Below are positions 33,779 through 54,337 of a DNA stretch of 64,000 bases, piece by piece; the first letter of the stretch is position 1, and every line of letters starts with the position of its first letter. This DNA comes from Schizochytrium sp. TIO01 (Eukaryota; Protista; Bigyra: Labyrinthulomycetes). The notes below the pieces were generated by a model. That model made no database searches. It was not told the DNA's origin and worked only from the letters and a program-made list of their open reading frames with translations. The stretch covers positions 62,001 to 126,000 of the forward strand of contig SMSO01000008.1 of NCBI GenBank assembly GCA_004764695.1, given 5' to 3'. The translations under genes were made by a program, and so were the position numbers.

Positions 33779-35119
33779 TTATCCTCTTCTGCTTCGCGCA
33801 TCTTTCCAGTGGGATTCTGTTTCGGTTGCTTTCCATTGGAGGTTCTCGTAGAACAGGTCTTGATCCTTCACAAACACGAAGGTGAAGAAATCGGTGAAAC
33901 CATCAACCCTTTTCTCGATTTTGGTACCCTCTTTCATGTAAAAGGCAACCGTTTCGCAATCAATGGGTTCAAACCCAGTGATTTTGACCCAAGTTCTCAC
34001 TCGACTTTCCCCAGTACGGTCAGTAGCAGTAACGTTCTCATTGGGACTGTAGTCGTGCGCAGGCTCGATCATGATCTGAGGAAACCTATCTTTGCCATAC
34101 CCGTACTGGTTACGTCGACCGTCGAACATGCGATGCATCGCCGCCGACAAGGCTAAGCGATTATTGTCGTCGTCCTGGACGCCCGCAGCATCCACAGCCG
34201 TCTTGTGAACTAGGTGTGCACAATCCGCCACCCCCTTTCGAAGAAAGAATGGGGCCTCAATCGACTGGAACATGGCTAAGTCCGAATCAGGTTCCACAGT
34301 GGTGTACACTGTGCTATCGCTGTCACCACAACGCGCAGAGCCTGGCTCATCATCCGAACGATAGTCCGTGTTGTAAATGTTCTGGGTATTGTCGACATAA
34401 ACGATTTCAGGGGAAGAGAGATCAATGTTGTCATTATTGTATCCGAGATTATTCGACAAGATCTCGTTGCAAAACATAGCAGCATCTCGAGAGCTAGAGA
34501 AGATAATCTCGAAGGTCAAGTCCATGGGTGGGTTGTCTCCTTCGTAACGAATAGCTCTTCTATGCGTTGGAACGTCCGTATCTTCGATTACCTCCGCAGA
34601 CCCAGCGTTGTTGGCTGCCGTCAAGTACACGAAGCGACGCAAGCCTTTGGCATTCTTACTATCTTTGAGGGTACCACAAACCTTGAAACGCCTGTTTTCA
34701 ATCTTTCTCGACCTTACCTCGGCCAGGACACCCCGCTGCGCCCCCCTTTCACTTACACTGCTACCTTTTTCGTAGCGCAGTGCGTCCATGTTCCGACTAA
34801 GCCTATCGCGCTCCCGTTCAAGGGAATCGTAATACGCCGTTGCCGACCCATATTTTTTCTTTAGGAAAGCACTGAGGTCGTCGAAGGAAGCCCCGTCCGT
34901 TTCTTCCAAACGCTCTATCTTGGCCTCTACGTCAGCGATACGTGCCTCGATGCTCTCGATCTTTTCTTCAAGCCGATGTACATCTTGATCCAATGCCTCT
35001 AGTTTAGCCAACTCGAGGGCTTCGTCCCCTTCCTCAACTGTTGACAATCGTTTGCGGTCATCGCCGCCCCCGCCACCGCCGCGGGTTTGGTTTCCTTTAC
35101 GACGGATGAAGGAAGCCAT
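33779..35119 (-). CDS. Crinkler-like HNH nuclease effector with coiled-coil header
   Basis: ATG at 35119 (MASFIRRKG). C-terminus FQSIE...DCAHLV...DDNNRLALSAAMHRMFDG...TFVFVKD...F...LQWK matches recalled oomycete CRN C-terminal HNH motifs (YQRIE, ESCHLV, NNRLALSR.MH..YDG, TFVHVxD...WKH). Confidence 0.8.
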   Translation of the reverse strand: MASFIRRKGNQTRGGGGGGDDRKRLSTVEEGDEALELAKLEALDQDVHRLEEKIESIEARIADVEAKIERLEETDGASFDDLSAFLKKKYGSATAYYDSLERERDRLSRNMDALRYEKGSSVSERGAQRGVLAEVRSRKIENRRFKVCGTLKDSKNAKGLRRFVYLTAANNAGSAEVIEDTDVPTHRRAIRYEGDNPPMDLTFEIIFSSSRDAAMFCNEILSNNLGYNNDNIDLSSPEIVYVDNTQNIYNTDYRSDDEPGSARCGDSDSTVYTTVEPDSDLAMFQSIEAPFFLRKGVADCAHLVHKTAVDAAGVQDDDNNRLALSAAMHRMFDGRRNQYGYGKDRFPQIMIEPAHDYSPNENVTATDRTGESRVRTWVKITGFEPIDCETVAFYMKEGTKIEKRVDGFTDFFTFVFVKDQDLFYENLQWKATETESHWKDARSRRG

Positions 35120-35453
35120 TTTCTTTCGCTCGGATGGACTGTTGCTCTGCTGCACCTGCTGCACTTGCTTCAAGTCACGCCGGCCTGGTGATACGGAACT
35201 GCCTGAGTCGGGTGCACGGCAGCGGTTCTACATTCATTAGGTTAGATTAGGTGAAGGGTAGAGCTTAGGTAAAACAGACTAAATTTTTAAACTGAGTGCA
35301 GCCCTGGCGTAGAAATAGCGGCGGCACAAGACGCACGGTACTGCACAGGGGCACAGCTGGTTCTGCCCGCCCGGTCCCTCGCCCTTGCATCCGCCCGTCG
35401 GTTGTCTCTCCATCTCTGTGTTACGAAGAGAAGAGAGGAAAAGAGAGGGGAAG

Positions 35454-36755
35454 ATGGAGGATCAATCATTCACAGCCCAGAATCACGCAGTCGGTCCTAG
35501 CTTTTCTCCGCAGTCGCTCTCACCTCAACAAAGAAGAAGTGGCAGCAGCAGCAGCAGCAGTCGCGCAGACTCGGCGGCGGTGGTCCCACTCTGGGAGCTA
35601 AGGCAGAGATATCACGACGATGACAGGGAGATACTCAAAGAGTTGTTAGAGAAGTTCAATCGAAAAACCACCCCCAAAGGAACCTCGCCTTCAAAGAAAA
35701 CACCCTGGGAGCGCGTGGAATATTTCGTCATCCTGTTAGGCGACCCGCGCTTCATTGATCTTTTTAAACGCCTTAAGCGGGAGGAGTTGAAGAACTCAAG
35801 GGGAGGCCGTAATCGGTGCTATGATAGCTTTTCAAAGTTGTTGAACCGAAGCAGCTTTTCTAAATCGCAGAAAGCTCGCAGCGAGCAGCGCGCTTCAGCG
35901 CTTTCGTACAAACCGAAGCCCTTTACCAAGGAAGAAGAGAGTGCTCTGTTGTCGATTATGCGAGAAGAGGTGCCGCGTAATGCAGAGCGGTATTATATAC
36001 AAAGAAGCCAAGATCGCTGTATTGCTTGGACAGAGGTTTCAAAGCGCTTCGATGAGATCACAGGCAGCTGCGATCGGCCCGAGAGTTCACTCCAAACCAA
36101 GTGGAATACTGCACTGCGATGGAAATTTAGCGAAGACCTGAAATTGGGGGAGCTTGTACGCAAGCACACCAAAGCAAGCGAAGGCCAGGCCTACAGAAAT
36201 TACATAATTCTTTCTGAAGTGGATTGGGGCAAAGTTCTTAGAGATTTTAAGGATGATTCATTGAATCCTACAATTGTCAAAAGGCGCGCTGTTCGCCTTG
36301 GTTTGGTGCGTAAGAAGGAGGCAAGTAAAAGTCTGGGCAGGCCCCGCGTGCGACCGAAGCCTGTTGCGATTTATTCTGATCGCCTGAGTGCCTCGGGATT
36401 GAGCGACATTCGCCTGAAGAATCGTTATTCGAAGGTGGAGTACGCAAGGATCTTTGAGGGCAATGCATACAGTTTCATTTTCGACTTGCATTCCCGTCAG
36501 GATTCGACGAACCCTTGTTACGACATGCTAGCGCCTGTGTTCAAGCTTTTCAAGACTGAATTAGAGCCTAAGAGGGAACCGATAGATCCGCAAGACACTG
36601 CATTTCTTGTCACTCTTCATTTAAGTGAATGGAAGGCTGTAAAAGTTTGCCTGGAGAACTATGTTTTCAAAGCGGAGCGCTATAGAAAGCTCTTTAAACG
36701 ATGCCTCATTAATTGGCTCTTTCCTGGTTCAAGGCCGCCTTTGCAAACGGCTTAA
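35454..36755 (+). CDS. Myb/SANT-like DNA-binding protein
   Basis: PFTKEEESALL...AWTEVSKRF...RPESSLQTKWN fits Myb/SANT spacing, with a possible second degenerate repeat (VDWGKV). First ATG at 35454. Confidence 0.7.
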   Translation: MEDQSFTAQNHAVGPSFSPQSLSPQQRRSGSSSSSSRADSAAVVPLWELRQRYHDDDREILKELLEKFNRKTTPKGTSPSKKTPWERVEYFVILLGDPRFIDLFKRLKREELKNSRGGRNRCYDSFSKLLNRSSFSKSQKARSEQRASALSYKPKPFTKEEESALLSIMREEVPRNAERYYIQRSQDRCIAWTEVSKRFDEITGSCDRPESSLQTKWNTALRWKFSEDLKLGELVRKHTKASEGQAYRNYIILSEVDWGKVLRDFKDDSLNPTIVKRRAVRLGLVRKKEASKSLGRPRVRPKPVAIYSDRLSASGLSDIRLKNRYSKVEYARIFEGNAYSFIFDLHSRQDSTNPCYDMLAPVFKLFKTELEPKREPIDPQDTAFLVTLHLSEWKAVKVCLENYVFKAERYRKLFKRCLINWLFPGSRPPLQTA

Positions 36756-36876
36756 TTGTATAATTGATTGATAGTTTTTTTTGTTTTTCTTGCTGTTCTT
36801 TATTTACGTTGAAAACAAATGAACTTTATATACAAACAAAGGGTTTTTTAATAGACCCCTTTCATTCTGAACGAAA

Positions 36877-36936
36877 GAAAGAAAGAACTAAGAGAATGTG
36901 AATGAAAGAAAGAACTAAAAGAATGTGAATGAAAGA
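36877..36936. repeat. 27-bp tandem repeat, about 2.2 copies
   Basis: gaaagaaagaactaaRagaatgtgaat twice. Confidence 0.85.
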
Positions 36937-37457
36937 TCTTAAGAGGTCTATTATTTTTTTGCAACCGCCGTTTTGGGATTCTCGCACGAAGCGAACGCGA
37001 CAAAGCAAAACCGCAATCAACCAAGGAAAGATCTGGAGCAGCACTTCGGTTCGCAAGCGCGCGCAAGAGCAGGGTAAGAGGAACGTCTTCGGTGCAGCAG
37101 CAGCAGTGAGCGTTAAGCATGACTGGGTTGGACTCAACTAAGCGCGGCGGCCAAGCCAGTGCGGAGTACGAGGAAGCGAAGGAGGAGGAGGAGGAGGAAG
37201 AGGCCATGTCTCATCACTCGTTCACTTCAACAGACGAAGAAGACTCTGCAAATCTCCACCATTGACGTCTTATCAGTGATCAGGATCAGACCAGAGGGAA
37301 ACAAGAACTGGGAATGGTGGAGAGAGGGGGATTCAAGGAAAGGGACAATTCTCGTTTCGAAAAAGAAAGTGCCCTCGAAAACAATAAAGTCGAGAGAAAG
37401 AAAATTTGCGGTCGGCCATCTTAGATGTCACGTCTGAAAAGATTTACTTTTGTCATT

Positions 37458-37665
37458 TTCATTTCTTTCGAGGTAAAAGATTTTGATCTCTCTTCCTTTA
37501 AAAGTTTTGAGGTGTGCAAATGAAAAGGTCACTTTCTGATTTTTGTAAAAGCTGAAAGGGGAAAGTTCATTTCTTTCAAGGTAAAAAATTACCCTTAAAA
37601 GATTTTTGAGGTACGCAAAACGGAAAGATCGCTTTCAGGTTCTGGTAAAGCTGAAAGGGGGAAAG
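37458..37665. repeat. Diverged ~108-bp tandem duplication in non-coding DNA
   Basis: ttcatttctttcRaggtaaaa...ttttgaggt..gcaaa...gtaaa(a)gctgaaagggg(g)aaag begins at 37458 and at 37566. Confidence 0.85.
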
Positions 37666-37893
37666 GACAATCACGCTTGCTCAACCAAAACGAGTGTTCC
37701 TCTCAAATTGAAGCACGCGTAATTGACATGTTTGGATTTCTATCGATCGAGCGCGTTGCGTTTTATTCCTGAGATCTGTCGGTCTGGCTAGATCTAGGAT
37801 GTGTAATCCCCTGGTTGAGTGAAAGTGGGTGTTTCGTTGCAGGCAAATCCGGAATTCTGTCAGCACGTGCAGAGTTTAAGAAGATAAACAAGG

Positions 37894-38457
37894 ATGGCTC
37901 TGCGCCCCGAGAAGCCGTCGAATCTCGTACGGAGACCTTCAACGAGGTCTATTGTTGGTGTTTTTGAGAGAGTGTTGACTGTTTCTCGGAATTTGCAAGA
38001 GAAAACTGGTGAATTGGCTTCGAAATTGAAGGTTCTTGAGGCCCGTGTGCACGAAATTCGACCTTCCATTAATCCTTCCTTGGCCCTGGCCATTGATGCT
38101 GCAGTGAGAGGAGACGAAAAAACACAGAAGATTGTACGAGAGAGTGAATCCAAAGTTCCTCTGTGTCAGAAAAGGGCGGTCGCGGCGTACACAGCCGCAA
38201 GCCACTCTCTCTTTCGTGTCCTTGCAGACACTGCAGCACTGGAGGAAACAAAGACAGAGTGTGCACTCTTAGTCTCTCAGGCACTCTCCCTTTTCCAAGT
38301 TGTTGAAGGTAAGCAAAACCCGAACACGATTGATAGGCTGGCCATTAGTGAAATCGTTAAGAGTGTGAAAGGGCTTGAAACGAGGCAAGAAGAAGAAGAA
38401 GAAGAAGAAGAAGAAGAAGAAAAGGAGAAAGCAATGCCCTTTCCTCGTCTATCATGA
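37894..38457 (+). CDS. Hypothetical helical/coiled-coil protein
   Basis: 187-aa ATG ORF ending in (GAA)n poly-E. Confidence 0.7.
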   Translation: MALRPEKPSNLVRRPSTRSIVGVFERVLTVSRNLQEKTGELASKLKVLEARVHEIRPSINPSLALAIDAAVRGDEKTQKIVRESESKVPLCQKRAVAAYTAASHSLFRVLADTAALEETKTECALLVSQALSLFQVVEGKQNPNTIDRLAISEIVKSVKGLETRQEEEEEEEEEEEKEKAMPFPRLS

Positions 38458-38475
38458 AAGAAAGCCAAGCACGGC

Positions 38476-40539
38476 TTGTCTGCGCCCCTTCACGCGAAAG
38501 GGAAGTCCAACGGAAATCGAGGTGTTAGAAACCCGGGAGGCGGAGACGGAATGGCGAGCAACCGACTTAGCACGAACAGTCGCTCATCGCAGCGAACTGA
38601 CAACGCGGGGGACAGTGGTGCGCGTTTCGATATTGTCCGCTTTGAGAGACGTCTAGAGGTGCAACAGGCTAGACTTCAAGAACTCGGAAAAGAATTGAAA
38701 GAGCTGGAAGACACTGGCGAGATTCCTGATGACGTTCTTCTGATCATTGAGGATGTTGTTCAAGAACAAATGGAGTTCGAGGACGCAATAAAAGAGGTGG
38801 CAATTTATGATTTAAAGGGTCGTTTGAAACGTAACGCTTTAAGAGCTCTGCGCATAGCATCTGATATGAAGGAAGCCCGAGTTAAAATCGAGAAAACCGA
38901 GGGAAAGATTGAGGAATTTGAGTCTGGAGGCGGTGAAGAAGGAGACAGCAATTGGCACTTCTCCGGATCAGTTTGGGAAGCCCTTAAGTTCGCTTTACCT
39001 ATAGTCCCTCAGCATGTTTTGCCAACTGTATCGAGCACCGCCGTTATTAGCGACAACTACATTTTTGCCCCTGCAAGCGTCATCAAAGTTGACATCGGAA
39101 GATTCATGAAGCACTGTATCGATGAAGGATTTGTGAGCAAGCTTCAGGAAGAAGCAACGAGTCTAAATGTTGATAGTCTACTCTGTCATTCAATGCAGTC
39201 TCTTTTCCTTAGGTCCGAGAGTTCCATTGGGCTTTGTTTTTCACAAGTTTTCCAAGCAGTCACCAGTGTTTTGCCCGTCGAAGAAGGAGAAGAAGGAACT
39301 GGAAGTGTCCAGCTCGGCTATACGTCGGACTACCCGGTAAAGGATGGACGCAAGGCTTTAAAGCCAGACTTTGTTGTTGGGACTATCATACAAGATCAAG
39401 CGCATCGGTTCGATGTTTCACTTGTTGGCGAGTTGAAGGGTCTTGGTTCTTCGGGCGATGAATTTTTTCACCGCTGGTGTAGTGCGGATGCAAACCATGA
39501 TCAATGCGATGGTTCCGAGAGACACCACCCTGTGTCTCCAATTAGACAGTTGTATAACTATATGGTCCAGTCCGGCAAGTTTGTTGGCGTTTACTCCAAC
39601 TATATGTTCACTGCAGCTTTCTTCCGAGATTGCGAAGGTAACCTTGCTACAACGCCGATGCTCTCAGGAAGACACTGTATGACACAATATGGACTAAGTA
39701 TACCACAGTTCCTTGCCTTAGTTACTATGATTGCTTTGAAGGGAGAAGTGCCACAATTTTTAGATGATAGAGGAAACGGCATCTTGGTGTCGTGCACAGG
39801 CTCAGAAGGTTGCACGATGGAGGGTCGTTCTGTTCCTCACACCGACCTTCCCGGGAAATGTAAATGGGATCAAGACCAGCTACAAACGCAGAATCGAGGT
39901 GGGGGAGGTGGACTTAGAGGAGGTGTAAGGCGGGCGCGGCGGAACAACCTCCTTTACAAAGAGCATGACACTCCCATCACCTGGGATGATCTCTACGAGT
40001 GCAAGCACATTTCTGACTGCTACACAGGTAGCGCAGTTGAGTGTGAGATCATGGGCGAGCGAGCAGTGGTTAAATACGACGATTTCGGCGATCACGAAGA
40101 TGCTGATTGGCGTCTCAACCAGATCGATTTTGAAGCTGAAGTCTACGCAAACCTGTCTGACTTGCAGGGGGATTGTATTCCCAAATACCTGGGCCATGGC
40201 TCCATTACTGATACTGATGGATTGCCGTATGGTTTTGCTACCTCTTATGCAGGTGAGCCACTCTCGTATGAATCTCTTGATTCTCTCACTGAAGAGTTCA
40301 AGACAAGCGTCAAGGATGCCCTAGACAAGATACACGCGCGTGGTGTTTTGCATGGCGACCTGAGACTTCCGAACATCCTGAAGTCGAAGGACGATCCTGA
40401 GAAGGCAATTTTTATCGACTTCAGTCATTCAGGGATATACGACGACCTTGATGGTCGGTTCTTTCAAGTCCGCGCAAGGCTTGAGAAGGAGAACCTCGTC
40501 AAGCTCTTGAAAGGCGAAAAAATCAAACAAGTTTTTTGA
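38476..40539 (+). CDS. Crinkler-like effector: coiled-coil header + PD-(D/E)XK (REase) domain + protein kinase
   Basis: REase motifs KPDFVV, GELK, QLYNYM, GVYSNY. Kinase motifs AVVK, EAEVY, LQGDCIP, IHARGVLHGDLRLPNIL, FIDFS. Likely start is the ATG at 38551. Confidence 0.8.
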   Translation: MSAPLHAKGKSNGNRGVRNPGGGDGMASNRLSTNSRSSQRTDNAGDSGARFDIVRFERRLEVQQARLQELGKELKELEDTGEIPDDVLLIIEDVVQEQMEFEDAIKEVAIYDLKGRLKRNALRALRIASDMKEARVKIEKTEGKIEEFESGGGEEGDSNWHFSGSVWEALKFALPIVPQHVLPTVSSTAVISDNYIFAPASVIKVDIGRFMKHCIDEGFVSKLQEEATSLNVDSLLCHSMQSLFLRSESSIGLCFSQVFQAVTSVLPVEEGEEGTGSVQLGYTSDYPVKDGRKALKPDFVVGTIIQDQAHRFDVSLVGELKGLGSSGDEFFHRWCSADANHDQCDGSERHHPVSPIRQLYNYMVQSGKFVGVYSNYMFTAAFFRDCEGNLATTPMLSGRHCMTQYGLSIPQFLALVTMIALKGEVPQFLDDRGNGILVSCTGSEGCTMEGRSVPHTDLPGKCKWDQDQLQTQNRGGGGGLRGGVRRARRNNLLYKEHDTPITWDDLYECKHISDCYTGSAVECEIMGERAVVKYDDFGDHEDADWRLNQIDFEAEVYANLSDLQGDCIPKYLGHGSITDTDGLPYGFATSYAGEPLSYESLDSLTEEFKTSVKDALDKIHARGVLHGDLRLPNILKSKDDPEKAIFIDFSHSGIYDDLDGRFFQVRARLEKENLVKLLKGEKIKQVF

Positions 40540-40642
40540 ACACTCACAAGTTAATAACCCCTAACTCATGAAAAGAAGAAGAAGAAGAAATAATCAATGT
40601 TTGTTTTGTTTCCAATCCATTTTATAATAAAATGCTACTTAG

Positions 40643-40758
40643 TTAGGTTAAGGAGAGGATCTCTCGCAAGTGATTTTCCACTGCAGAACTTGTGTACTCA
40701 CTGAACCGCTGCTTGTCTTTGGATTGATGGCAAGTTTCGAACAATGCCAACGGATCCA

Positions 40759-40789
<31 letters not shown>

Positions 40790-41119
40790 TGTTACTTTAG
40801 TCGCTTCGGCGTAGTCTTGGGAGGGTCCAAGCAATGGAATTGGGCCCGGGACAAAGGAGTTAAGTAGCCACGAAAAGAGCACACGAGCGGTCCTTCCATT
40901 GCCAAATGCAAAGGGTTTGAGAAACAGGAACCTTGCTGTGAATTCTGTCGCAACGTGCAAAGCATCTTGCAATGCGGCGGCTTCTACATCTTTTACATCT
41001 TGCTTTCCTGTGATCGAGAAAGGCGTGGTTTGGTATTTTATAATGAGATTCCTCAGTGCACGATCAAGAAGCCCAGGGGTTGGATGAACAAGAGGAACTC
41101 GGGCTGGATAATTTGGCAA
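40643..41119 (-). pseudogene. Fic/Doc-domain protein with altered catalytic motif and no adjacent ATG
   Basis: FLFLKPFAFGNGRTARVL versus canonical HPFx(D/E)GNGRxxR (His to Lys, acidic residue lost). The 5' end lies in a repeat whose ATG-bearing copy is at 42461. Confidence 0.7.
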
Positions 41120-41232
41120 GGTAATTATTTATTCTTTCTGTTCTTCCATAATTTCTTCTTTGTTAAGTAACCTAGCTAAGTCGCATCGCAAATGAAATGA
41201 GTGGTGAGAAGGGCCGGGAGGATCTTAGGAGA

Positions 41233-41691: not shown

Positions 41692-41892
41692 CGTGTTTGT
41701 TTGTTTGTTTGTTTGTTTGTTTTCCTAGTTTTTCTACAAACTCCTTCTCCTTTTCTTCTAAGGGTAGATAATTTGGCAAGGTGATTATTCTTTCTAAAAA
41801 CTTTTTTTCTTACTTCTTTTCTTTGTTATGGAACCTAGCTAAGTTGCATTGAAATGAATGAATGAGTGACGAGGGAGATCTTAGGAGATCAC

Positions 41893-42348: not shown

Positions 42349-42652
42349 CGCGTTTGTTTGTTTGTTTGTTTGTTTGTTTGTTTGTTTGTTTGTTTGTTTT
42401 CCTTTTTTTCTGTAAACTTTCTCTTTCCTTCTCAGGGTAGATAATTTGGCGAGGTGATCATTCTTTCCGCCTTCCTTTTACCTATTCCATTTTCCCAAGG
42501 TTCTTCAATTTACCTATTGTTTCTCTTTTTATTGTTACAGAGGAGGAAGAAAAACAAATAAAAATAATATCAATTCTCCCTGGGTAAACAACGCAAAGAA
42601 AGGGGGGGGGGGCAAAAGGAATTTATAGAGAAAGAAGAAAAACCAACAAAAC

Positions 42653-44677: not shown

Positions 44678-47600
44678 ATTCATCTATGCGTGTGGAAAAC
44701 ACGTGGATCAGATTGCTCTTCTGGGCATCAATGTAGCCCTGCATGACCTTGGACTGCCGCTGTACGTAAGAAAAGCCGTCCTGTCCACCGGCTGTATGGG
44801 TGACCGGCTCAAACAGGGTGGGAATGGCTAGGTCCCACATATTTTTTCTCTCTTCGACCTTTTTCTTAATCGAGCCCTTGTACGTGTTTGCAAAGAAACG
44901 GTTCTTGGATTTTTGCTCTTCGCACAGTCCGCGCAGGTCGGAGAGCACTTCCTGGATTTCCTGCTGGCCTCCGTGGAGATTTAGAAATGGGGTGCACTTG
45001 GCGTCTTCGGCAATCCACTGGTTTACAATCTCCGAGGCTTTGTGGTAGATGGAAAGGCGGCCCTTCTCGAGACGCTCGGCCCGCTCGCGCTCCACCAAAG
45101 AGCCCATGAGCAGCTTCGCAATCGTGCGAGAAGGCACATCAAAGGTGGCGACCTTGCAGCCCGGATGCTGCGTGCATACCCCTGCTTGCTGCTTGCTGAG
45201 CGGCACACCCAGGACCTCCCGCAGCACGCGCCGAGTTACAGCAAGCTTCCAGGGATTTTCGGGATCGGCCTTGACCACTTCCTTGAAGACCAAATCGAAT
45301 TCCTCGCACAATCTATGCAAGTGAAACACAGCTACGTCGCTTCTTTCTTTAGGACAGCTGTGCACTTCGACCTTGTCCAAATTAATCGCCTTGCTGATTA
45401 CATGATGATGCGGCAGCGGCACAGCAGGAATGGCAGCAGCACCAACAGCACCAGCGGCATTGCCACCTTCGTCCAATTCTAATGCCGCCATTGCTATCTG
45501 TTCTTCTTCTTCTTCTTCTTCCTCCTGCGACGGCTGCTGAGTAAACAATTCCTCCTGCTGGGTAAAGAAATCGTCATCATAATTCTCCTGCTGCTCTTGC
45601 TGCTCTTGCTGCTGCGGGGGCTGCGGGGGCTCTTGCTGCTGTAGTATGGGATCCTCCTCAGTACCGGCGGCTTCTTCGTCTTGCTCGATTTCTCTAAAGG
45701 CCTCTGGGGGGCTGCCGAGCACCTCCAGGTAATCGATGAGCACGCGGCGCTTCTTCTTGACTTGGTCGTAGTTCTCGTGCCAGATCTGCACACCCTCGAG
45801 CTCCTGGCCTCGCTGAAGATACTCTACAGGGTTCGTAGGAATCGAGGCCTCATTAGCTTTGAGCTGCAGGTCTTCCTTGGTGGAAAGCAACAAATTGGCG
45901 AGCATTTGAATCTTCCGCATACCTCCTAGCTGTTCCGTGTGCCTTAGCAGCTCCTCGGCCGCGTCAGGGTCATTCAAGCCCTTGTAGAAGTAGCGCGCCA
46001 ACTCGAGAGAAGTCTTGTAGCCCCGAGAAATAATAGTGTCGTCCTCTGGATGCTCCCTGACGTGCTCCAGATAACCAGCCACTTCCGAGCTGCGGGAATG
46101 TTCGGTGATGTTCATGTAGCGCCCAAAACGGAACTGGGTAGACACCTCGCGGTCATAGGAAGAATCGGTGTCGGTCTGCACGAACATGCGCGCCTGCCGA
46201 GGGTCAATATAGTTGCTGAGGATTTGCATGAGGAAAGTGCGAAGGTAATCCGCATTTGACAGTCTCTTCTGGTAACGCACTCGCTCCAAGACAAAGGAAG
46301 TCATTGAGCCCGCGTAATTCCTTGTGGTCTTGGCGCCCCGCGGGAGAGGCGGAGGCGCCTCACACTCGGGAATCCCAAAGCCCCCTGAATTGATCTCGAC
46401 CATTTCAACAGAGCCCAAACCGTCGGTCTCGTGAACAGTGATGTTCGTGTGCAAGTAAATGGACACGCGCCCACTGCGGGGAGCGCGCACACGCGCTAGC
46501 AGCTGCATGACGTTGCGCGGCGTCACCTCCTGGCTCCCAATAAACACCATGGTCTCCTCAAAGTGATTCGCACTGTAATCGAGCCCTGCTCCCAGCACTG
46601 AATTCACAATCAAGACGCGGTAGTTCTCCCAGGATTTTGTATCCACCATAGACTCCTTCGTCTTCTCCGTGTCGTCTCCTGTGATGGCCTTGACGGCATA
46701 AACATCACTGACGTCCTGGAAGCCCAGCCGAACGTGCACAAACTCGACGAACCAGGCCTCAAGGGCGCGGCATTGGTGCTTGCCAGGGCACACAATGAAG
46801 AGGTTCTTACCTTCCCTGAGGACCGTTTCAGCGCGCTGGAACCACTGGCACATGTAAGGCATGAGGCAGTACACACGCATGTAGGGAGAGAGCCGGTTAA
46901 TGTGCACGCGAAAGTAGTTCTGCTGCCGCGGAGGCCGCAGGCTCTCAATCCACTGCGCGGCTGTGTCGTCCATGTCTGCGTCAGAGAAAATCACCACTTT
47001 GGCCTTGCGGATCAGCTCAATCATGATATAAAGCGTCACTTCTCTGTGCTCGCTGAGCGTTTCACTCACGACGTGGCTCATCAGAGAGGTAAATTCGTCC
47101 AGGACCACCACGTCGTACTCCAGCCTGCCAATCATCGCGCGCTCGACAGTTCCGTCCTCCAGCACGACCGCCTCCGGAGTGAAGATATGGCGCAGCGAGT
47201 CAAGTTGAATCGAGAGGCGGGGCTCCGTCAGGGCCGCGCGGTCGATGCGGCCATCCTTGCGGTAGTTCACCAGGCCCAGGCGGCTAGCCAGCGCAGCGGC
47301 CAGCATGCGGCGAAAGCTGATGGACAAGACAGAGGCCTCTTCGGGAAGCTCCTCGATGACCTTGGCGATTAACTCCGTCTTGCCTGTGCCCATGGAGCTC
47401 CAGAGGACCAGTGTGGAGGGCCCCAGCAGCGGGCTGGTCGGCTCACCACCCCTGCGTTGCGGGCCGAAGATCTGCGAGAGGTCGGCAATGTCGTGAAAGC
47501 GCCGCTCCTCCAGGGGCTCCAGTCTGTAAATGTGGTGGTAAGGCGCAAACTTGCGCAGCGCGCCGATGCCCATGGCCACCTTAGACACCGGCATCTGAGC

Positions 47601-49640
47601 AGGCCTCACGACAGTTTCGTTTTCCAGCCTTTCAACCTGCTGGGCCAGCATGCTGCTCCTCGCGGGGTCTGTGTCTGGCACCAAAAAGCTGTTGTTCTTC
47701 GAGGCGTGGAAGGTGAAGGAGCGCTTGCTGCCGCACTTGAAGCAGTAGAGCTCGAGGTCCATGGATGCAGTGAGGGTCAGTTTGTGCATGTTCGTGTTAT
47801 TCTCACTCTGGCAGAACAAACAGAAACGAAAGCCGGTTTCTACGCAGTAGAAACGCACGATGGCGCACATGCCCACGCCTCCCTCGAGCCCGTGGAAAGC
47901 AACATTCGGCGCGTAGTCCACTTTACCGTCGGCCTTGACCGCTTCCAGGATCCCCTTGAGGCTCCGGAGAAGATAGTTGCGCAGGTACCTAGCTTTGTTC
48001 AGACGAACAAAGTTGCCTGCGACCACGCGGGCCAGCATGAGGTTCTCCAGGTTCCCCACACCCTGCATATTGTCCTCGTCAACTCCGGTGTGCTCGTTTC
48101 GCAACTGGAAGAGGGCCTGCCAGATGTGCGCCTTCTGCGGGTCGCCGCGGCCCCCGTTCGACTCCCAGACCAATGCGTTCATATTTTTAATGATTCGTCT
48201 GGCCGGCGGGCAGTAGCCGATCTCGTTTACATTATTGCAGCATTTGCGAATGTACTCAAACCCGGTTTTCTTCGCTTCGTCGGGCACCTTGATCACGCGC
48301 GGGTTTGAACAGAGCTGCGGGTAAAAATGCACTACGCTGTGGTGCCAGGGGCGTTGCAAGTCACCCGACCGGACGGGCTTGAGAAAGCGGAGGTAATCCT
48401 TGGCCTTGGCGCCCTGCAGCTTCTGCCGCACCACTTGGAAGCCATCATCAGCCTTGGCGCACCCTGGAAGACGGAACTCGCGTTTACCTTTCGAGTAAAT
48501 CACAACGTCCATCAGGCAGCCCAGCTTGAAGATACTCCAAGGATTAGAAGCAGAAGCAGCAGAAGAAGAAGCAGAAGTAGCAGTAGCAGAAGCAGGATTA
48601 TTGATCCTCTTGTACTTGCGGAAGTGGAAGCACCGCCGGAAGGTCTCAAGGTGGCCGTGGCAGATCCCTGAAGTCTCAGCGGGAACGGCGATTTCTCTGG
48701 TCACGATCTTGAGCATCATAGCAGTAATCACCGCGGCGGCCTGTCGCAGGACCTCGCGGTTGGGGAAGCCCGCCTCGCACCCCACAATGGCGTGAAAGGA
48801 GATCTTGGGCTCCTTCGCATAGTACTGGGGCCGGTTGCTCTCCAGGATGAGGAAATCGTCTGCGGCCAGCTGCAGAGGGGCTCCGTCTCGATCAGTCATC
48901 GTCTCGTTCATGATCATCACGGCAAGGCGGCAGAGCGTGGTGACAGAAATGCGAATATCCTCGTAGCTAAGTGGCAGGTCATCCCTCAGAGAGCGCACGC
49001 GCATGTCCTCTGAATCAACGTCTACGTCAATATCAAAGTGCATCTTGCACGCTTCGTAAGACTGGATGATCTCATTGTAGTTCCGCAGAAAGGGCGGCGT
49101 GCTGGCTACAACCAGGCAAAGGTCGCGCGGGCCCAGCAGCGGCATGAAGCGGTGCGCAACGTGGTTCCCTATAAATCCGTTCACCGCAAGGAAAAGCACG
49201 TGCGTGTCTCTGCGCGCGTCATACTCTTCTTCGCCGTAAGCGGAGTGCAGCTTGTAGTACCGCCGGAGCTCCGCAAGTTTGGTCTTGACCCTGGAAATAA
49301 GCGTGGCGTCTGTATCTGCGAGACCTCTGTCGCTGTCTTCCACCGGGAAACGCGCCAAAATCATCGACAGGTCCCCCTGCTCGCTCATCTTGCCGGGCAG
49401 GGACCGCAGGCGCGCGTCGTTCATCGAGTCGAAGGAACTCACAAGCTCGCGAAGGGCGTACACAGAAGCATTCTGGCGCCGCTTGAGCTTAGGAAGGGGC
49501 CACGAAACCAGCGTGCTATCGCAAGCCCTTTCCATATCGCTAAAACCAAAGGCCTGGTCAATGGAAATGCTCTTGATCGCATCATTGATCCGAAGAGCGC
49601 GGTCAATGCGCCTTTGCTCACGCTCAGCCTCAGTGATCAT
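44637..49640 (-). CDS. AEP (PrimPol/UL52-like) primase + Zn finger + UL9/origin-binding-protein-like SF2 helicase fusion
   Basis: AEP motifs KMHFDID, KISFH, MDVVIYSKGKREFRLPGCAK. Zn finger CLFC...H...CFKC. Helicase motifs SMGTGKT, SFRRML, QLDSL, LDEF, SDAD, GAGLD, QLLARVR. Start given as GTG/TTG-class by the track is uncertain. Confidence 0.92.
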   Translation of the reverse strand: MITEAEREQRRIDRALRINDAIKSISIDQAFGFSDMERACDSTLVSWPLPKLKRRQNASVYALRELVSSFDSMNDARLRSLPGKMSEQGDLSMILARFPVEDSDRGLADTDATLISRVKTKLAELRRYYKLHSAYGEEEYDARRDTHVLFLAVNGFIGNHVAHRFMPLLGPRDLCLVVASTPPFLRNYNEIIQSYEACKMHFDIDVDVDSEDMRVRSLRDDLPLSYEDIRISVTTLCRLAVMIMNETMTDRDGAPLQLAADDFLILESNRPQYYAKEPKISFHAIVGCEAGFPNREVLRQAAAVITAMMLKIVTREIAVPAETSGICHGHLETFRRCFHFRKYKRINNPASATATSASSSAASASNPWSIFKLGCLMDVVIYSKGKREFRLPGCAKADDGFQVVRQKLQGAKAKDYLRFLKPVRSGDLQRPWHHSVVHFYPQLCSNPRVIKVPDEAKKTGFEYIRKCCNNVNEIGYCPPARRIIKNMNALVWESNGGRGDPQKAHIWQALFQLRNEHTGVDEDNMQGVGNLENLMLARVVAGNFVRLNKARYLRNYLLRSLKGILEAVKADGKVDYAPNVAFHGLEGGVGMCAIVRFYCVETGFRFCLFCQSENNTNMHKLTLTASMDLELYCFKCGSKRSFTFHASKNNSFLVPDTDPARSSMLAQQVERLENETVVRPAQMPVSKVAMGIGALRKFAPYHHIYRLEPLEERRFHDIADLSQIFGPQRRGGEPTSPLLGPSTLVLWSSMGTGKTELIAKVIEELPEEASVLSISFRRMLAAALASRLGLVNYRKDGRIDRAALTEPRLSIQLDSLRHIFTPEAVVLEDGTVERAMIGRLEYDVVVLDEFTSLMSHVVSETLSEHREVTLYIMIELIRKAKVVIFSDADMDDTAAQWIESLRPPRQQNYFRVHINRLSPYMRVYCLMPYMCQWFQRAETVLREGKNLFIVCPGKHQCRALEAWFVEFVHVRLGFQDVSDVYAVKAITGDDTEKTKESMVDTKSWENYRVLIVNSVLGAGLDYSANHFEETMVFIGSQEVTPRNVMQLLARVRAPRSGRVSIYLHTNITVHETDGLGSVEMVEINSGGFGIPECEAPPPLPRGAKTTRNYAGSMTSFVLERVRYQKRLSNADYLRTFLMQILSNYIDPRQARMFVQTDTDSSYDREVSTQFRFGRYMNITEHSRSSEVAGYLEHVREHPEDDTIISRGYKTSLELARYFYKGLNDPDAAEELLRHTEQLGGMRKIQMLANLLLSTKEDLQLKANEASIPTNPVEYLQRGQELEGVQIWHENYDQVKKKRRVLIDYLEVLGSPPEAFREIEQDEEAAGTEEDPILQQQEPPQPPQQQEQQEQQENYDDDFFTQQEELFTQQPSQEEEEEEEEQIAMAALELDEGGNAAGAVGAAAIPAVPLPHHHVISKAINLDKVEVHSCPKERSDVAVFHLHRLCEEFDLVFKEVVKADPENPWKLAVTRRVLREVLGVPLSKQQAGVCTQHPGCKVATFDVPSRTIAKLLMGSLVERERAERLEKGRLSIYHKASEIVNQWIAEDAKCTPFLNLHGGQQEIQEVLSDLRGLCEEQKSKNRFFANTYKGSIKKKVEERKNMWDLAIPTLFEPVTHTAGGQDGFSYVQRQSKVMQGYIDAQKSNLIHVFSTRIDEFRGLAPDNDDDSH

Positions 49641-50334
49641 CAGGAGGGGAGTTTTTTTTTCTTCTTGTTGTTTGTTTTTTTCTTCAATAAAATTTAGTCT
49701 TCCTCTTATAATGTATTACCTTGTTTGAACGACTCAAGCTTTTTTGATCATCCAACTCAATCTTGATTTTAGTCTTGCTTCTTGTTTTTTTAAATTTCGC
49801 AATGGCTTCTTGCGTGTAAATCCAAAGGCAAAATCTAACCACGAATCGACCTTTGTTGAAATATGCCTATATAGGAGGGCTCCTCTCTAACCGTCTAACC
49901 TGACGAGGTCTTCCAACAACTGGAATTATTGTACTTCCATTTGTACCAATTTTTGTAAGTTTGAAATTGCGGTTTGTTAAGGGAAATTGTAGTTTATGAT
50001 AGTTGTACCATAGTCCTAGGTAAGATTCCTTTAAATATACACCACCCCGCAAAACTTTGTACTTCCATTTGCTCCAAGGGTCTGGAGCTTTTGGTAGACC
50101 AGATCGACCAAACAGTTTGCCATAGTTTTTGCGCGGCCAGGAACAGAGCTCTTCATGAAGAGCGATTCAGAAAAACGAGAAGGAAATCGGATAACTCCAG
50201 ACTTTTTGATCTTTTGGGCTTCTCCAGATCCCAAACCAGAAATCCAGAGCTCTTTAGCATCACATTTTCCTTTCAAGATACTTTCACGAGTTCTCGCATC
50301 CAGACATAAGAAAGAAATAGTACGTATAGAAACA

Positions 50335-51270
50335 ATGAGCGGAGATAAGCAAGAAGTTCAAGACATTGAGCAAGTGCAGCAGGTTTACTCCAAGTATGGA
50401 AACCTCTCTCCTGCCATGAGGCGCCTAGTGCTCAACGATCCCATGGTGAAGAACGCTTCGCCACACCTGCTGGATATCTGGCACTACACCAATCGCTTCA
50501 TCGGAGCGGCAGGTTTCGTCTACCACGCAGCCCAAGTAGCACGCATGTGCGGACTGGCCTATACTACTAAGTTTGATCGCGCAGTATTCCGCAGTCGCTA
50601 CCTTGAAGTTTACGGTGAGAAGGAGGTAGACTGGGATTATGTCAAGAAATCGGAGATTTTTAAACCCCCCATCGGTGAAAAATCCAGACTCGGTAACTTT
50701 GAAAACTCCATAGTACTAACAGTGCCTGGGTCCACCACCGGAGAGACTGTGACAATTTCCCCGGGTACCAATTTGACCAAGTTTCCTATGCTAACCGAGA
50801 AGTTCGCTCGCCGCCTGATCCTTTCTTCAAATGGACAAATTGGGCGCCTCTATCGCGAGTTTATGATCGTCTTCTGGTCTGCCATTGCTATGATCAGAGA
50901 AGAGCCCATGACTGTAGCAAAGGTCATCCAAGATGCAGATGAAGAAATTGAGGAAATCATTCAGGATACCGTGCTCGAGCCCATTCCGGTGAACAAACAC
51001 AATGAAATTCGCGATAAAATCGCAGATAGATACAATGGAAAAATTGAAAGTGTTAACGATGCAGGCATTGTAGACGTAGAAACGAAAGACGAAGTCATCG
51101 AAGTGAAGCCCGTGGAAGATTGGTCTCATGGGATTGGGCAGGTATTTGGTTACGGAGAAGCAACAGGAAAGAGAAAGCGTTTGGTGCTTTTCGGTGAGAA
51201 AGAGCCCAATCCCATTTGTAAAAAGGTGTGCGACAAATTGGGAATCTCCCTTGAAATTCTTAAAGAGTAA
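50335..51270 (+). CDS. Putative DNA-binding N-terminal domain + C-terminal PD-(D/E)XK nuclease-like domain
   Basis: ATG 50335 aligns with the paralog start at 51472. C-terminus GIVDVETKDEVIEVK...WSHGIGQVFGY resembles the domain found behind KilA-N in giant viruses. Confidence 0.8.
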   Translation: MSGDKQEVQDIEQVQQVYSKYGNLSPAMRRLVLNDPMVKNASPHLLDIWHYTNRFIGAAGFVYHAAQVARMCGLAYTTKFDRAVFRSRYLEVYGEKEVDWDYVKKSEIFKPPIGEKSRLGNFENSIVLTVPGSTTGETVTISPGTNLTKFPMLTEKFARRLILSSNGQIGRLYREFMIVFWSAIAMIREEPMTVAKVIQDADEEIEEIIQDTVLEPIPVNKHNEIRDKIADRYNGKIESVNDAGIVDVETKDEVIEVKPVEDWSHGIGQVFGYGEATGKRKRLVLFGEKEPNPICKKVCDKLGISLEILKE

Positions 51271-51471
51271 AATCAATTAAAAAGAAATTTAAAAGAAAAG
51301 AAGAATAAATCCATCTGAGTTTTTTCTCCTCCTGATCTCAAGTCAGAAAATCAGGAATCCTTTGCCATTTTTTTCTTTTAAAGCATCTTTAAAAAGTTTT
51401 TTTGTCTTTTGAGAAAACAAAGAAAACGAGAAGAAGAAAGAAAACAATACGTACGTACTTAGCTAAGAACA

Positions 51472-52622
51472 ATGAGCGGAGTTCAAGACATTGAGCAAGT
51501 GCAGCAGGTGTATACAAAGTATGCAAACCTCACTGAGGCCATGCAGCGCTTAGTACTCAATGACCCCACGGTGAAGAACGCTTCGGCGCGCCTGCTGGAC
51601 ATCTGGCACTACACCAATCGCTTCATCGGAGCGACAGGCTTTGTCTACCACGCAGCCCAAGTAGCACGCATGTGCGGACTGGCATACAATGTTAATCATG
51701 ATCGCGTTCACTTCAAAGAGAGGTACCTCGAAGTTTATGGCGTGAAAGAGGTAGATTGGAAGTTTGTCAAGAAGTCGGAGGTTTTTTCGGACCCTTTCGG
51801 TGAAAACTCTAAAATGCCAATGCTGGTACTATTGAAAACTCTATAGTATTACCAGTGCCCGGGTCGACCACCGGCGAAACTGTGACAATTTCTCCGGGAG
51901 GGAATGCGGCGAAGTTCCCCATGCTTACTGAGAAGTTCGCTCGCCGCTTGATTTTGCGTTGCGGTCAGAAAGGCTTAGATAAGGACTATGCTGAGTTCCT
52001 CCTTGCCATGAATGATATTGTGGTGAAGGTTGCTACTGGTCAGTACGTGCAATCCGAAGAAGAGCAGGATCAGCAGCCTCGGGGTACCAAGCGACCTGCT
52101 ACCTGGCAGGAGGAACTGGAGTACCAGGAGCGTATGGAGGAGCTCAAATTAAAGAAAGCTCGTCGAGATGCCGAAGAAGCCCAGTTGAGGCAGATTCAGG
52201 CGGAGAATTTCTTCAAAATGATGGCTGCCTATGGAGGTGACGAGTCTGACCGCGACAAGATCCACCGCATGGATTACCAACGCAATATCGTTTTCTCCAT
52301 TGGTGATTCCTTGCTTCAGGATATCAGGGGAGGTCACTCACAAATGCAGAGTGGCCAGCCTGTGCACACCATTATGGACGCCGAGCCTGCACAAAGAGAA
52401 ATTACCATTTCCGAAGTTGCTTTGCGATTGCTGGGACGCCCTGCACGCGACAAGGAACTTCCCAAGTTTGGAATGGCTGTGAGCAAACTCTATTTTGCTA
52501 AGTACGGCACCAAGCCTCCCAAGCGCAACCAGTTCGTGGATGGTGCACCTCGCCAAGACAATTCTTATACTACTAAGGACCTTGACCTTCTTGAGCAAGG
52601 CATCCATCAGTGTATCCAATAA
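51472..52622 (+). pseudogene. Frameshifted paralog of 50335..51270 with a different, antirepressor-like C-terminal domain
   Basis: Same N-domain. Adding one base at ~51811-51814 (tctaaaatgcc) restores ENSIVLPVPGSTTGETVTISPG. C-terminus TISEV...FG..VSKLY...YG..PPK...NSYT.KD.DL. Confidence 0.8.
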
Positions 52623-52624
52623 AA

Positions 52625-52638
52625 CTCTACTAGTAGAG
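52625..52638. terminator. Perfect 14-bp palindrome just after a stop codon
   Basis: CTCTACTAGTAGAG. A 3'-end-formation role is inferred by analogy to the mimivirus hairpin rule. Confidence 0.3.
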
Positions 52639-52903
52639 AAATCGATGGAAAATTTCTAAACACTCAAATCAAACGAAAATGTAGTACCTCTAGATCTTCC
52701 TGCACACAAAATTGAATTGGAGGAGAGTGATCAGTCATCCATGCGTCATCAAAATCCTCTTTCCACCTTCGGTTTTTCGTAGGTACCCTTTTATTTAGTT
52801 CCTCATTCCTCCCAAAAGCAGACGGTCACCGCTGACTAAGAAAGCTTAAAATCTCTTTTATAGATACGAAGGTGAGAGTGTGAAAGAAGAGGAGGGAGAG
52901 AAA

Positions 52904-54337
52904 ATGGGAAAGGGCAAACGCCGCCAAAGCCGCAAACGCGGTGACGACAGTGCGACGACGAACGAGGGCGCGACGGGAGCCAAAGCGTCAGGCAGTCGCA
53001 GGGGTGTGCCGTTCCGGAGGGTCGGTATTGGGCGTTTAGATCCCGTCCCTGAGAATAACGCGATGGAGAATCAAGGCGCTTTGGACGATGCCGAGAGCAG
53101 GCGCCGCACAGCCCAACGAGTATATGATGATACGATCAATGAGCTCGAACGAATAAAGGAGAAGATCAAGCAACTCGAAGAGGCGGTCGATGAGGGCAAC
53201 GAACAGGAGCTTTTTGACCAACTGCCTGAATTTTATAAACGCCGTTTTGGAAATGTTGATGGTTACTACGACTATTTACTTGAGGAACTAGCGAATCTCA
53301 GACGTGAAAGAGAAGTTCAAGGCGAAGTATTGAAGACGGCTACTCAGGAGGTCCAAGACCTTAGGGCAGCACTCAGACTGATCACACACGGTGATAAGCG
53401 CTATTTTGAGGTCACTGGTTGGATCGACGGATCAAAGTATAGTACTGGCGTTCGTCAGAGCGTCTACTATGCCGCAGCTGATACAGGTGGAATGTACCTC
53501 ACCTCGGTCGATGAAGAGCCTCACGATGCTCATCGAAATGCTATATACTATAATGGAGAAGACCTCAATTTTCAGCTTTTCTTTTGTGACGAAAAGGCGG
53601 CCAGAGAATTTACAGTCTTGATTTCCAACGGCCGGAGTCAGCGAGTGAACACGAAGATATCTAATTCGGAAAGTATATCCAACGAAGACCTCCGTAACAT
53701 TCTTTACGACGATTATGATACTACGGATGAACCAGACTCGCCTGGCATCTCCCACGCATCTTCAATCTCTAGCAAGACTTTGGCCGACTTGTCGAGTAAC
53801 CTGGCCAAATTTCAATCCATTGAACGTTCTGATTTAGTGGCGCGTGGTAAAGCACAAATCTGTCACCTTGTGGATAAGAGTCACGTTGGAAGCATCGAAG
53901 GTTTCTCTGATGATGACAACAATAAGCTATGCTTAACCCCGACTCTTCACGCGAAGTTCGATGGGAATCGGAACAGGCACGGGTATTCATCCCCCCCTGA
54001 CATACTGATCGAGCACGTTGTTGCGCCGCGAGAGGGCCTCATTGTTACCGCTCCGGGGTTAATTGAAAACCCTGGATTCACCGATGACCAACTACAGGAA
54101 CGCGCTTTGGTCTGGCTCAAAGTGAACTTTCCTTACAAAGAAGACTTCATTCTTTTTGGGAATCTACTCAAATTTGGTAGCATCGTTGATCCTGAGGAGG
54201 ACCTAGAGTTGCGGTGTTGGGTTGTCTATACTTTTGTCCACGTTCTTGATAAAGATCAGTTTATAAAGAATATTGATTGGAAAGCAGAACGCACGAAGCA
54301 AGTATGGGAGGAACTGAGTTTTAATCAAAGCAATTAA
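52904..54337 (+). CDS. Crinkler-like HNH nuclease effector with coiled-coil header; paralog of 33779..35119
   Basis: FQSIE...KAQICHLVDK...DDNNKLCLTPTLHAKFDG...YTFVHVLD...WKAE; header FDQLPEFYKRRFG..DGYYDYL; ATG at 52904. Confidence 0.8.
   Translation: MGKGKRRQSRKRGDDSATTNEGATGAKASGSRRGVPFRRVGIGRLDPVPENNAMENQGALDDAESRRRTAQRVYDDTINELERIKEKIKQLEEAVDEGNEQELFDQLPEFYKRRFGNVDGYYDYLLEELANLRREREVQGEVLKTATQEVQDLRAALRLITHGDKRYFEVTGWIDGSKYSTGVRQSVYYAAADTGGMYLTSVDEEPHDAHRNAIYYNGEDLNFQLFFCDEKAAREFTVLISNGRSQRVNTKISNSESISNEDLRNILYDDYDTTDEPDSPGISHASSISSKTLADLSSNLAKFQSIERSDLVARGKAQICHLVDKSHVGSIEGFSDDDNNKLCLTPTLHAKFDGNRNRHGYSSPPDILIEHVVAPREGLIVTAPGLIENPGFTDDQLQERALVWLKVNFPYKEDFILFGNLLKFGSIVDPEEDLELRCWVVYTFVHVLDKDQFIKNIDWKAERTKQVWEELSFNQSN

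Follow-up and report, generated by a model that had tools for sequence, protein, structure and literature searches.

Predicted CR-type nuclease genes in a probable skiavirus segment beside host-like DNA

We analysed a 64,000-nucleotide stretch of contig SMSO01000008.1 from Schizochytrium sp. TIO01 (assembly GCA_004764695.1, positions 62,001 to 126,000; hereafter the window). A gene-dense, virus-like segment of the window carries three genes, here called A, B and C, which an initial annotation, made from the letters alone, had described as Crinkler-type toxin genes with coiled-coil headers. All three open reading frames (ORFs) are unbroken and intronless. A and C encode predicted nucleases that share their C-terminal module with true Crinklers, and B encodes a predicted nuclease-kinase.

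Genes A and C

Gene A, 33779..35119, minus strand: 446 amino acids (aa); basic tail, helical-hairpin header, acylphosphatase-like domain and CR-type HNH module (HNH-type residues H302, N320, H329 and D333)
Header of gene A, residues 30-137, 34709..35032, minus strand: long helical hairpin that includes the FD.L..F.K motif
Gene A residues 140-255, 34355..34702, minus strand: acylphosphatase/ferredoxin-like fold, no assigned role
Gene A nuclease part, 33785..34282, minus strand: predicted HNH-type nuclease module and C-terminal beta domain
Gene C, 52904..54337, plus strand: 477 aa; a paralog of A, whose header and HNH module it shares (HNH-type residues H321, N340, H349 and D353)

The two proteins aligned with 31% identity across 405 aa (E 1e-47 in a three-sequence database). 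The header pattern FD.L..F.K..(Y/F)G....YYD.L..E...L.R was matched exactly in A (residue 79) and in C (residue 104) and in none of the 26 other ORFs tested, and the A-C header score was reached in 0 of 1000 shuffles. The initial claim that A and C share a header and an HNH module was thus borne out, and, judged by sequence comparison, the two genes are old paralogs. The header motif is common to A, C and a small clade of marine relatives; the header hidden Markov model (HMM) matched P0008, P0038, P0014 and P0013.

The N-termini of A, B and C are basic, with 7, 5 and 8 lysine and arginine residues in the first 30 aa, respectively. None is hydrophobic: the maximum 15-residue hydropathy was at most 0.15 over the first 40 scanning windows, in a plain hydropathy scan. 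A motif scan found neither LxLFLAK nor HVLV in the three proteins, apart from a chance LELAK within the helix of A, and the ubiquitin-like Crinkler header (Pfam PF20147) matched none of them. The basic tails and the missing LFLAK motif that had been noted from the letters both hold. We dropped a role as secreted effectors, given the lack of a hydrophobic leader and of a ubiquitin-like header. Near the N-terminus, KRLSTV(E/D)E is kept in the clade of A (35042-35056), and B starts with NRLST (38563-38574), which may be a phosphorylation site or chance.

In an AlphaFold2 model of A built from a 10-row alignment (mean pLDDT 76, pTM 0.48), a disordered tail was followed by the helical hairpin (30-137) and two alpha/beta parts, with pLDDT values of about 77-93 for residues 31-130. 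Residues 140-255 were superposed on acylphosphatase 1urr by VIA-align (Z 9.4, rmsd 3.3, 94 of 97 residues aligned), and Foldseek also returned weak acylphosphatase matches for A.

The four HNH-type residues of A are kept in 138, 144, 133 and 135 of 150 aligned family rows, respectively, and in C. Pfam HNH_2 was matched by 20 of the 150 aligned family members, with a best value of 6.4e-6. The ESM Atlas placed HNH_2 clusters at 0.89 to A, a lead only; Atlas similarities, here and below, are leads that come without alignments. It bears against a firm HNH call that A itself did not match HNH_2 and that C did so only at E 0.053. VIA and Foldseek comparisons of A with the PDB, in which coiled coils filled the match lists, gave no solved HNH structure, and the A3 profile found no match among PDB sequences. 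From the family pattern, A and C are predicted to cut or nick DNA.

Relatives of A and C

We searched 1.84 billion proteins with a profile built from the header-less cores of A, C and a metagenomic relative, L002, and obtained 372 proteins at E<=1e-3. Besides A and C, the 150-row family alignment contains all 150 listed hits except P0002 and P0007, which makes 148. Four of its rows (P0096, P0145, P0155 and P0157) contain the Pfam Crinkler domain, with a best value of 6.7e-22; their profile E values range from 2.6e-15 to 5.1e-12, and two of the four have textbook CRN N-termini. By this homology search, the 300-aa C-terminal module of A and C is homologous to that of true Crinklers. A profile search for CRN-type domains, which the initial annotation had proposed as a check, thus found both Crinkler and HNH_2 domains among the relatives, and the suggested Crinkler-type kinship stands for A and C; for B it is likely from motifs and look-alikes, with no alignment.

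Because the headers of family members vary (ubiquitin-like, several coiled coils, or none), the module appears to have been shuffled across eukaryotes. Among the 20 hits whose organisms we looked up were the chytrids Batrachochytrium, Gorgonomyces, Boothiomyces and Nowakowskiella, together with Tribonema and Feldmannia species virus (FsV). Gorgonomyces contributed six members within one cluster.

A midpoint-rooted FastTree tree with 281 columns used 150 of 175 proteins (core length at least 230 aa). A and C grouped with marine metagenome and MMETSP proteins in a clade of 18 members (support 0.96), several of which have the A/C header. The nearest neighbours of A were marine metagenome and MMETSP transcript proteins and not C, from which A is separated by a distance of 2.4. 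With this distance and 31% identity, we dropped a recent in-place duplication of A into C. A large distance separates A and C from the Crinkler-headed proteins and from the protein of Feldmannia species virus (A to FsV, 4.8). Because A and C went into the query and sampling was confined to top hits, the tree yields no donor or direction. Since the nearest tree neighbours of A include MMETSP transcript proteins, relatives of A are transcribed; P0002, 71% identical to A, is a complete MMETSP transcript.

The best viral structures matching A were B5LWM7 and B5LWG2 of Feldmannia species virus (E 1.7e-16 and 1.3e-14), and B5LWM7 was also matched by the core profile (P0074, E 4e-17). The L002 protein is 46% identical to A and lies in another context, near a tyrosine-recombinase-like ORF (PF00589, E 5e-4, below the cut-off). 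The same piece, L002 1..8126, also has a GT61 glycosyltransferase (E 1e-16) and is possibly another mobile or viral element. Two further candidates were discarded: L001, the lone pattern-scan match for C in viral contigs, had no HMM match, and L003 was a 28-residue chance match.

Gene B

Gene B, 38551..40539, plus strand: 662 aa; coiled coil, unknown domain, PD-(D/E)xK motifs and eukaryote-like kinase
Predicted restriction-endonuclease-fold domain of B, 39343..39645 (limits approximate), plus strand: PD272-273, E294-x-K296 and Q333xxxY337, from a motif scan
Kinase domain of B, 39988..40500 (limits approximate), plus strand: K508, H601-G-D603-L-x-x-x-N and DFS623

The first ATG of B is at 38551; position 38476, where the initial annotation had started the gene, is an in-frame CTG 25 codons upstream. 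That annotation had read the product as header, restriction endonuclease (REase) and kinase. The start was wrong, the coiled coil and the kinase stood, and the nuclease is seen at the level of motifs (PD272-273, GELK293-296 and QLYNY333-337). The kinase is intact by its motifs (AVVK505, HGDLRLPN601 and DFS623) and matched Pfam APH (1.8e-5) and PDB 9x4g (1.4e-5), as well as Kdo and Bud32-type kinases. The nuclease part gave no profile or fold match, and its support consists of motifs and Atlas look-alikes.

The N-terminus of B is by sequence a helix rich in E, K, Q and L, with weak matches to coiled-coil families. In the region of the A/C header motif, B was at shuffle level (640 and 819 of 1000 shuffles reached the score), and the A/C header HMM gave E 0.44 on B; on these grounds we dropped one header common to all three genes. 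For the entire headers of A and B, 2 of 1000 shuffles attained the score, consistent with a generic coiled-coil likeness. As far as these sequence comparisons go, the coiled coil of B differs from the A/C header.

For residues 134-662 of B, the ESM Atlas returned eukaryotic, mostly fungal, kinase clusters at 0.99. Clusters bearing SPOK2_N followed at 0.96 and 0.95 (ranks 9 and 10 of 30), with 98% SPOK2_N at 0.96, and a Crinkler-plus-kinase cluster, in which 91% have the Crinkler domain, stood at 0.94. Residues 134-450 had no Pfam match to SPOK2_N (PF27653) at E 10, in a local Pfam copy that may not contain the model. Taken together, the motifs and language-model look-alikes make CR-type kinship of B likely, and by analogy B may work like a Spok. 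A one-base deletion at 39667 (B codon 373), between the nuclease motifs and the kinase, was listed in runs X1, X4 and X8; it may be compensated nearby.

Copies in related runs

We compared the window with contigs from related sequencing runs; variant counts are from the best-supported rows. Near-identical sequence for 33000-41000 was held by 20 of the 24 listed runs, from 9 studies, and no RNA runs were listed among the holders. In these rows, the contigs with a variant at a single place numbered up to 7 for A, up to 3 for B and up to 3 for C; positions 48643-48777 of a viral helicase gene (see below) gave 1 contig per run. Related runs thus contain A, B and C in several divergent copies. In two runs, a contig joined the viral neighbour of A, a 649-aa ORF, to the end of A (joint 33641-33778). 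Joints 43002/49050 and 48141/52072 occurred in 3 of 4 runs, which suggests that related genomes have other copies of the viral segment, with deletions or rearrangements.

Left direct repeat flanking C, 52543..52615, plus strand: 73 nucleotides (nt), in the 3' end of ORF 51921..52622
Right direct repeat flanking C, 54425..54497, plus strand: non-coding

The two 73-nt repeats are 93% identical at a spacing of 1882, with weaker likeness to about 100 nt. No empty-site joint across C was present among the 15 of 27 joints listed. Summed depth over A, B and C exceeded that over the helicase or the WLM protease, and we did not take depth as copy number. Run X13 covers C and not 56924-59000, a gap that proves nothing. 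Among the listed variants, 5 of 16 in A and 9 of 19 in the helicase were synonymous, numbers too few and too pre-selected for interpretation. Short TTAGG-like runs were seen near A, at about 35235 on its upstream side, and near B, at about 40640 on its downstream side.

The virus-like segment

Gene-dense virus-like segment, 21427..64000, no strand: runs past the window edge, with gene-poor host-like DNA on its left
UL9-like origin-binding helicase, 44637..49640, minus strand: 1667 aa; Pfam PF02399, E 6.6e-20; skiavirus core gene
WLM metalloprotease, 57669..58544, minus strand: Pfam PF08325, E 8.2e-8; skiavirus core gene
OTU-like protease, 42653..43315, plus strand: Pfam PF02338, E 0.023, below the cut-off; as reported for ariadnaviruses
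433-aa ORF, 35454..36755, plus strand: divergent from A, no matching Pfam
187-aa ORF, 37894..38457, plus strand: no family; same-strand neighbour whose end lies 93 nt upstream of B

Among 28 chosen ORFs, the coding share was 78% from about 21.4 kb rightwards and 5% in 1..21400, and GC rose from about 0.39 on the left to about 0.48 in the dense segment. We take the N-terminus of the helicase to be a probable AEP primase, by eye. The product of 35454..36755 is presumably Myb/SANT-like, a label given by eye only. The 649-aa ORF (31698..33647) has no Pfam match; by eye, we take it to have an N-terminal hydrophobic helix and a HELGH zinc-metalloprotease-like motif. By inspection, we also assume that the ORF family of 50155..52622 and 56749..57672 has MSV199/KilA-like N-termini and REase-like ends.

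Several side observations concern the remaining genes. The ORF at 56749..57672 matched Tox-REase-9 at E 0.005, and 51472 and 51921 resemble a split paralog of 50155 (79% DNA identity). Paralog pairs were seen in tandem at 41233..41691 and 41893..42348 (83% DNA identity), at the left edge of the element (21427..22473 and 22798..26337), and at 27386..28441 and 55484..56575, the last encoding Ser/Thr-rich membrane-anchored proteins. In the host-like flank, repeats of about 100-120 nt that contain CCTAA-like runs are scattered over 16047..17385, and an ORF for a host-like membrane protein, with neither intron nor Pfam match, extends past the window edge (2..1108, minus strand). No Rfam match was found in the window, and so there is no rDNA flank. 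Codon use correlated with that of the core genes at 0.24 for A, -0.02 for B and 0.25 for C; it does not discriminate, because many other accessory ORFs also correlate poorly.

The Skiavirales, described as Ariadnavirales in a second preprint (bioRxiv 10.64898/2026.07.28.741200 and 10.64898/2026.08.29.747986), provide the closest frame for the segment. Herpes_ori_bp and WLM are among 17 core genes of Skiavirales (Latimer preprint), and both were found in the segment; a UL9-like primase-helicase and OTU were described for the same viruses in the Yutin preprint. Term searches of the tables at hand for the Aurantiochytrium mirusvirus AurliV found no Herpes_ori, origin-of-replication or WLM annotation (PMC12606086), which makes a mirusvirus identity less likely. 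Six short motifs of A, B and C, searched in the same tables, gave no homolog and one unrelated match. Genes for capsid (MCP), A32 and VLTF3 were not detected in the window, nor were RNA polymerase and PolB, of which Skiavirales lack the first and mostly the second, in these 42 kb, about a fifth of such a viral genome. PADLOC and NCBIfam returned only kinase and coiled-coil matches. Pattern scans of viral contigs found no relatives for helicase, A1, B, A2 or WLM, and a prokaryote genome scan and phage tblastn were empty; these empty scans show little, because they need near-exact words.

From its gene content, the segment is probably a piece of a skiavirus/ariadnavirus in a thraustochytrid-like host, and the virus-like element named in the initial annotation holds in this sharper form. 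The segment directly adjoins the gene-poor host-like DNA, a junction that may also be a misassembly. This position suggests an integrated copy, so that the segment may be a chromosomally integrated skiavirus. In the text at hand of the Latimer preprint, 'integrat' does not occur; the abstract of the Yutin preprint has 'either integrated or co-sequenced'.

Discussion

The explanation we favour, with about even confidence, is that A, B and C encode non-secreted proteins, predicted to be CR-type nucleases, and travel between a thraustochytrid-like host and a likely skiavirus as selfish cargo in multiple copies. The basic tails would take the proteins to the nucleus, on which skiaviruses depend. 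A and C would act by cutting or nicking DNA, with the cassettes then copied through break repair or recombination. The kinase of B would restrain its own nuclease as in Spok, allowing B to be carried without killing its bearer, and the persistent virus would be one vehicle, gaining little or incidental benefit. The open frames, the kept catalytic-type residues, the Crinkler-module homology, the divergent copies and the repeats around C support this explanation, and multi-copy genes are exchanged among skiavirus, mirusvirus and nucleus (Latimer et al. preprint). Among the options raised in the initial annotation, selfish genes colonising the virus fit best, given the copies in related runs and the repeats. 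The suggestion of a polymorphic-toxin set, in the sense of one header with exchanged toxins, found no support within the window: the header of B is unrelated, A and C do not differ in their toxin module, and the three genes lie apart. On sequence, A, B and C are not one modular polymorphic-toxin locus.

Several results weigh against selfish cargo. Selection for a viral function would explain the intact frames and preserved catalytic residues just as well. Multiple copies are not specific to A, B and C: in the rows listed, the 50155-52622 paralogs went up to 12 contigs at a single place and the 649-aa ORF next to A up to 3, and contig joints show rearranged copies of the viral segment itself. 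The extra copies of A, B and C are chromosomal or in other viral copies, two cases that are indistinguishable from contigs. No transposase or terminal repeat accounting for movement of A or B was found, and no restrainer of A or C is shown in the window. A word-index search with B yielded no homolog among 7995 scored candidates, and no alignment-based homolog of B was recovered. The strict Spok cysteine cluster pattern, C-x3-C-x13-C-x5-H-x7-H, is absent from B, and Spok3 resistance needs the cluster; between its domains B has only C415-x5-C421-x15-C437. Because the cluster is absent, we did not file B as a Spok.

That cluster also matters for an addiction role, in which B would be a Spok-like poison-antidote gene: daughters losing the virus would keep the nuclease without fresh kinase protection and die, and a non-lytic infection would be maintained. 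The parts of B stand in the order of SPOK3 (coiled coil, unknown domain, PD-(D/E)xK with QxxxY, ELK-type kinase), and the Atlas cluster with 98% SPOK2_N lies close to B. Spok genes limit the loss of dispensable chromosomes in Fusarium (bioRxiv 10.64898/2026.10.04.756499; model PMC12693581), and the persistence of skiaviruses is stated as unexplained in the Latimer preprint. The idea has thus gained a concrete precedent since the initial annotation raised it, although the missing cluster counts against it and we consider it unlikely. The top Atlas matches of B are generic fungal kinase clusters, with SPOK2_N clusters only 9th and 10th. Copies in host chromosomes would protect in trans and so cancel the addiction, and the copy here appears integrated, making loss rare. 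The deletion at codon 373 in three runs is a further point of uncertain meaning. By analogy with Spok, it is a doubtful proposition that a nucleus-dependent giant virus with a Spok-like B and CR-HNH nucleases uses post-segregational killing to stay without lysis.

A use as viral weapons, with the nucleases degrading host chromatin in a rare lytic cycle or cutting the DNA of a co-infecting mirusvirus or skiavirus (exclusion), seems quite improbable to us. The nucleus disappears in SmDNAV infection, and nucleases are among the likely host-interaction genes of that virus (Yutin preprint); mirusvirus and skiavirus particles were seen together in 0 of 983 cell sections (Latimer preprint), and the two structural relatives of A belong to an unrelated integrating giant virus. 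Nevertheless, CR-type genes are not among the skiavirus core genes named in the text at hand, the extra divergent copies of A, B and C exceed those of the helicase, and the viral instances stand far apart in the tree, which fits independent pick-ups. Host DNA attack and superinfection exclusion, both suggested initially, found no specific support. A poor prospect, too, is a neutral insertion of host genes or host-defence nucleases into a virus that was already integrated and decaying. In its favour, host-like DNA borders the segment and one neighbour looks split (51472 and 51921 against 50155); CRNs reported as host-derived occur in a giant-virus contig of Phytophthora parasitica (PMC8204020), and CR proteins were proposed to target invasive DNA (Amaro 2017, PMC5289972). 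Against such an insertion stand the three intact, intronless frames with viral gene spacing, the near-identical 33000-41000 in 20 runs, and the joining of the 649-aa viral neighbour to the end of A in two runs.

Selfish cargo, if true, would be a modest extension of known host-virus gene exchange. It would place CR-type nucleases, known as pathogen effectors and fungal drivers, in a recently described order of persistent giant viruses, and it suggests that such viruses ferry the CR-type family between protist genomes, with a second, distant case in a brown-algal virus. The persistence of skiaviruses over decades in culture is an open question for which B offers a testable proposal; an addiction role, if true, would mean giant-virus addiction built on the nuclease-kinase chassis of fungal meiotic drivers and Crinkler effectors. 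A chromosomally integrated skiavirus, if real, is not described in the text at hand of the main skiavirus preprint.

Comparison with known systems

It is established that CR architectures exist and that free-living eukaryotes have them (Amaro 2017, PMC5289972), and AeCRN13 and BdCRN13 are tested HNH-type examples (Zhang et al. 2016, as known through Amaro et al. 2017, PMC5289972). A and C resemble CR proteins with an HNH module in their layout of header and C-terminal toxin, in the homologous 300-aa module and in the kept H/N/H/D residues. As in CR proteins, their N-terminal header is swappable (the hairpin 30-137, with other headers in the family). They differ in having a clade-specific helical hairpin, which may be one of the alpha-helical header families of Zhang et al. 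2016, instead of the ubiquitin-like LxLFLAK header, and they sit in a virus-like segment of a probably free-living protist; the CRN13 subfamily is a candidate only. From the canonical oomycete or chytrid CRN effector, A, B and C all differ by lacking the LxLFLAK/HVLVxxP header (PF20147).

With CR REase-kinase proteins (e.g. PiCRN8) and fungal orphan REase-kinase clusters, B shares PD-(D/E)xK motifs followed by a kinase; it differs in its coiled-coil header, the lack of a Crinkler domain and the lack of an alignment-level homolog. In SPOK3, the nuclease kills and the kinase and cysteine cluster protect (PMC6660238); kinase-dead Spok1 kills Escherichia coli and yeast through DNA damage (PMC9972908), and a spok gene limits the loss of a dispensable chromosome (bioRxiv 10.64898/2026.10.04.756499). 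Like these Podospora and Fusarium proteins, B runs from a coiled coil through PD-(D/E)xK and QxxxY (at motif level) to an ELK-like kinase with its catalytic Asp in one chain, and it is borne on a large mobile element. Unlike them, it has no cysteine cluster, is non-fungal and lies on a virus, not a Starship; killing and resistance by B would be by analogy. A selfish CRN-like gene has been described in fish (PMC12957317).

By title and the start of the abstract, no paper on thraustochytrid Crinklers or on protist viral Spok or toxin-antidote genes appeared to be on topic, and our literature search found none linking mirusvirus or Feldmannia species virus with Crinklers. The words 'toxin' and 'addiction' do not occur in the main text at hand of the Latimer preprint; the supplements of this and of the Yutin preprint may annotate these genes. 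The Latimer preprint describes a multi-copy 'SPS1' kinase that skiavirus, mirusviruses and nucleus have in common and whose family may or may not be that of B. The Yutin preprint describes a phage-derived, conserved HNH as well as a divergent kinase.

The Feldmannia proteins B5LWM7 and B5LWG2 match A structurally and likewise come from a giant virus of a stramenopile; they differ in their N-terminus and distant tree branch, and are annotated as uncharacterised. The segment resembles the Skiavirales/Ariadnavirales in its UL9-like helicase, its WLM and OTU proteases and multi-copy genes common with the host. Long-read genomes of these viruses map as circles, and those of the lytic SmDNAV isolates as linear, whereas the segment here adjoins host-like DNA. 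Among these systems, the A/C header looks new, and CR-type nuclease genes in a probable skiavirus are otherwise of a known kind.

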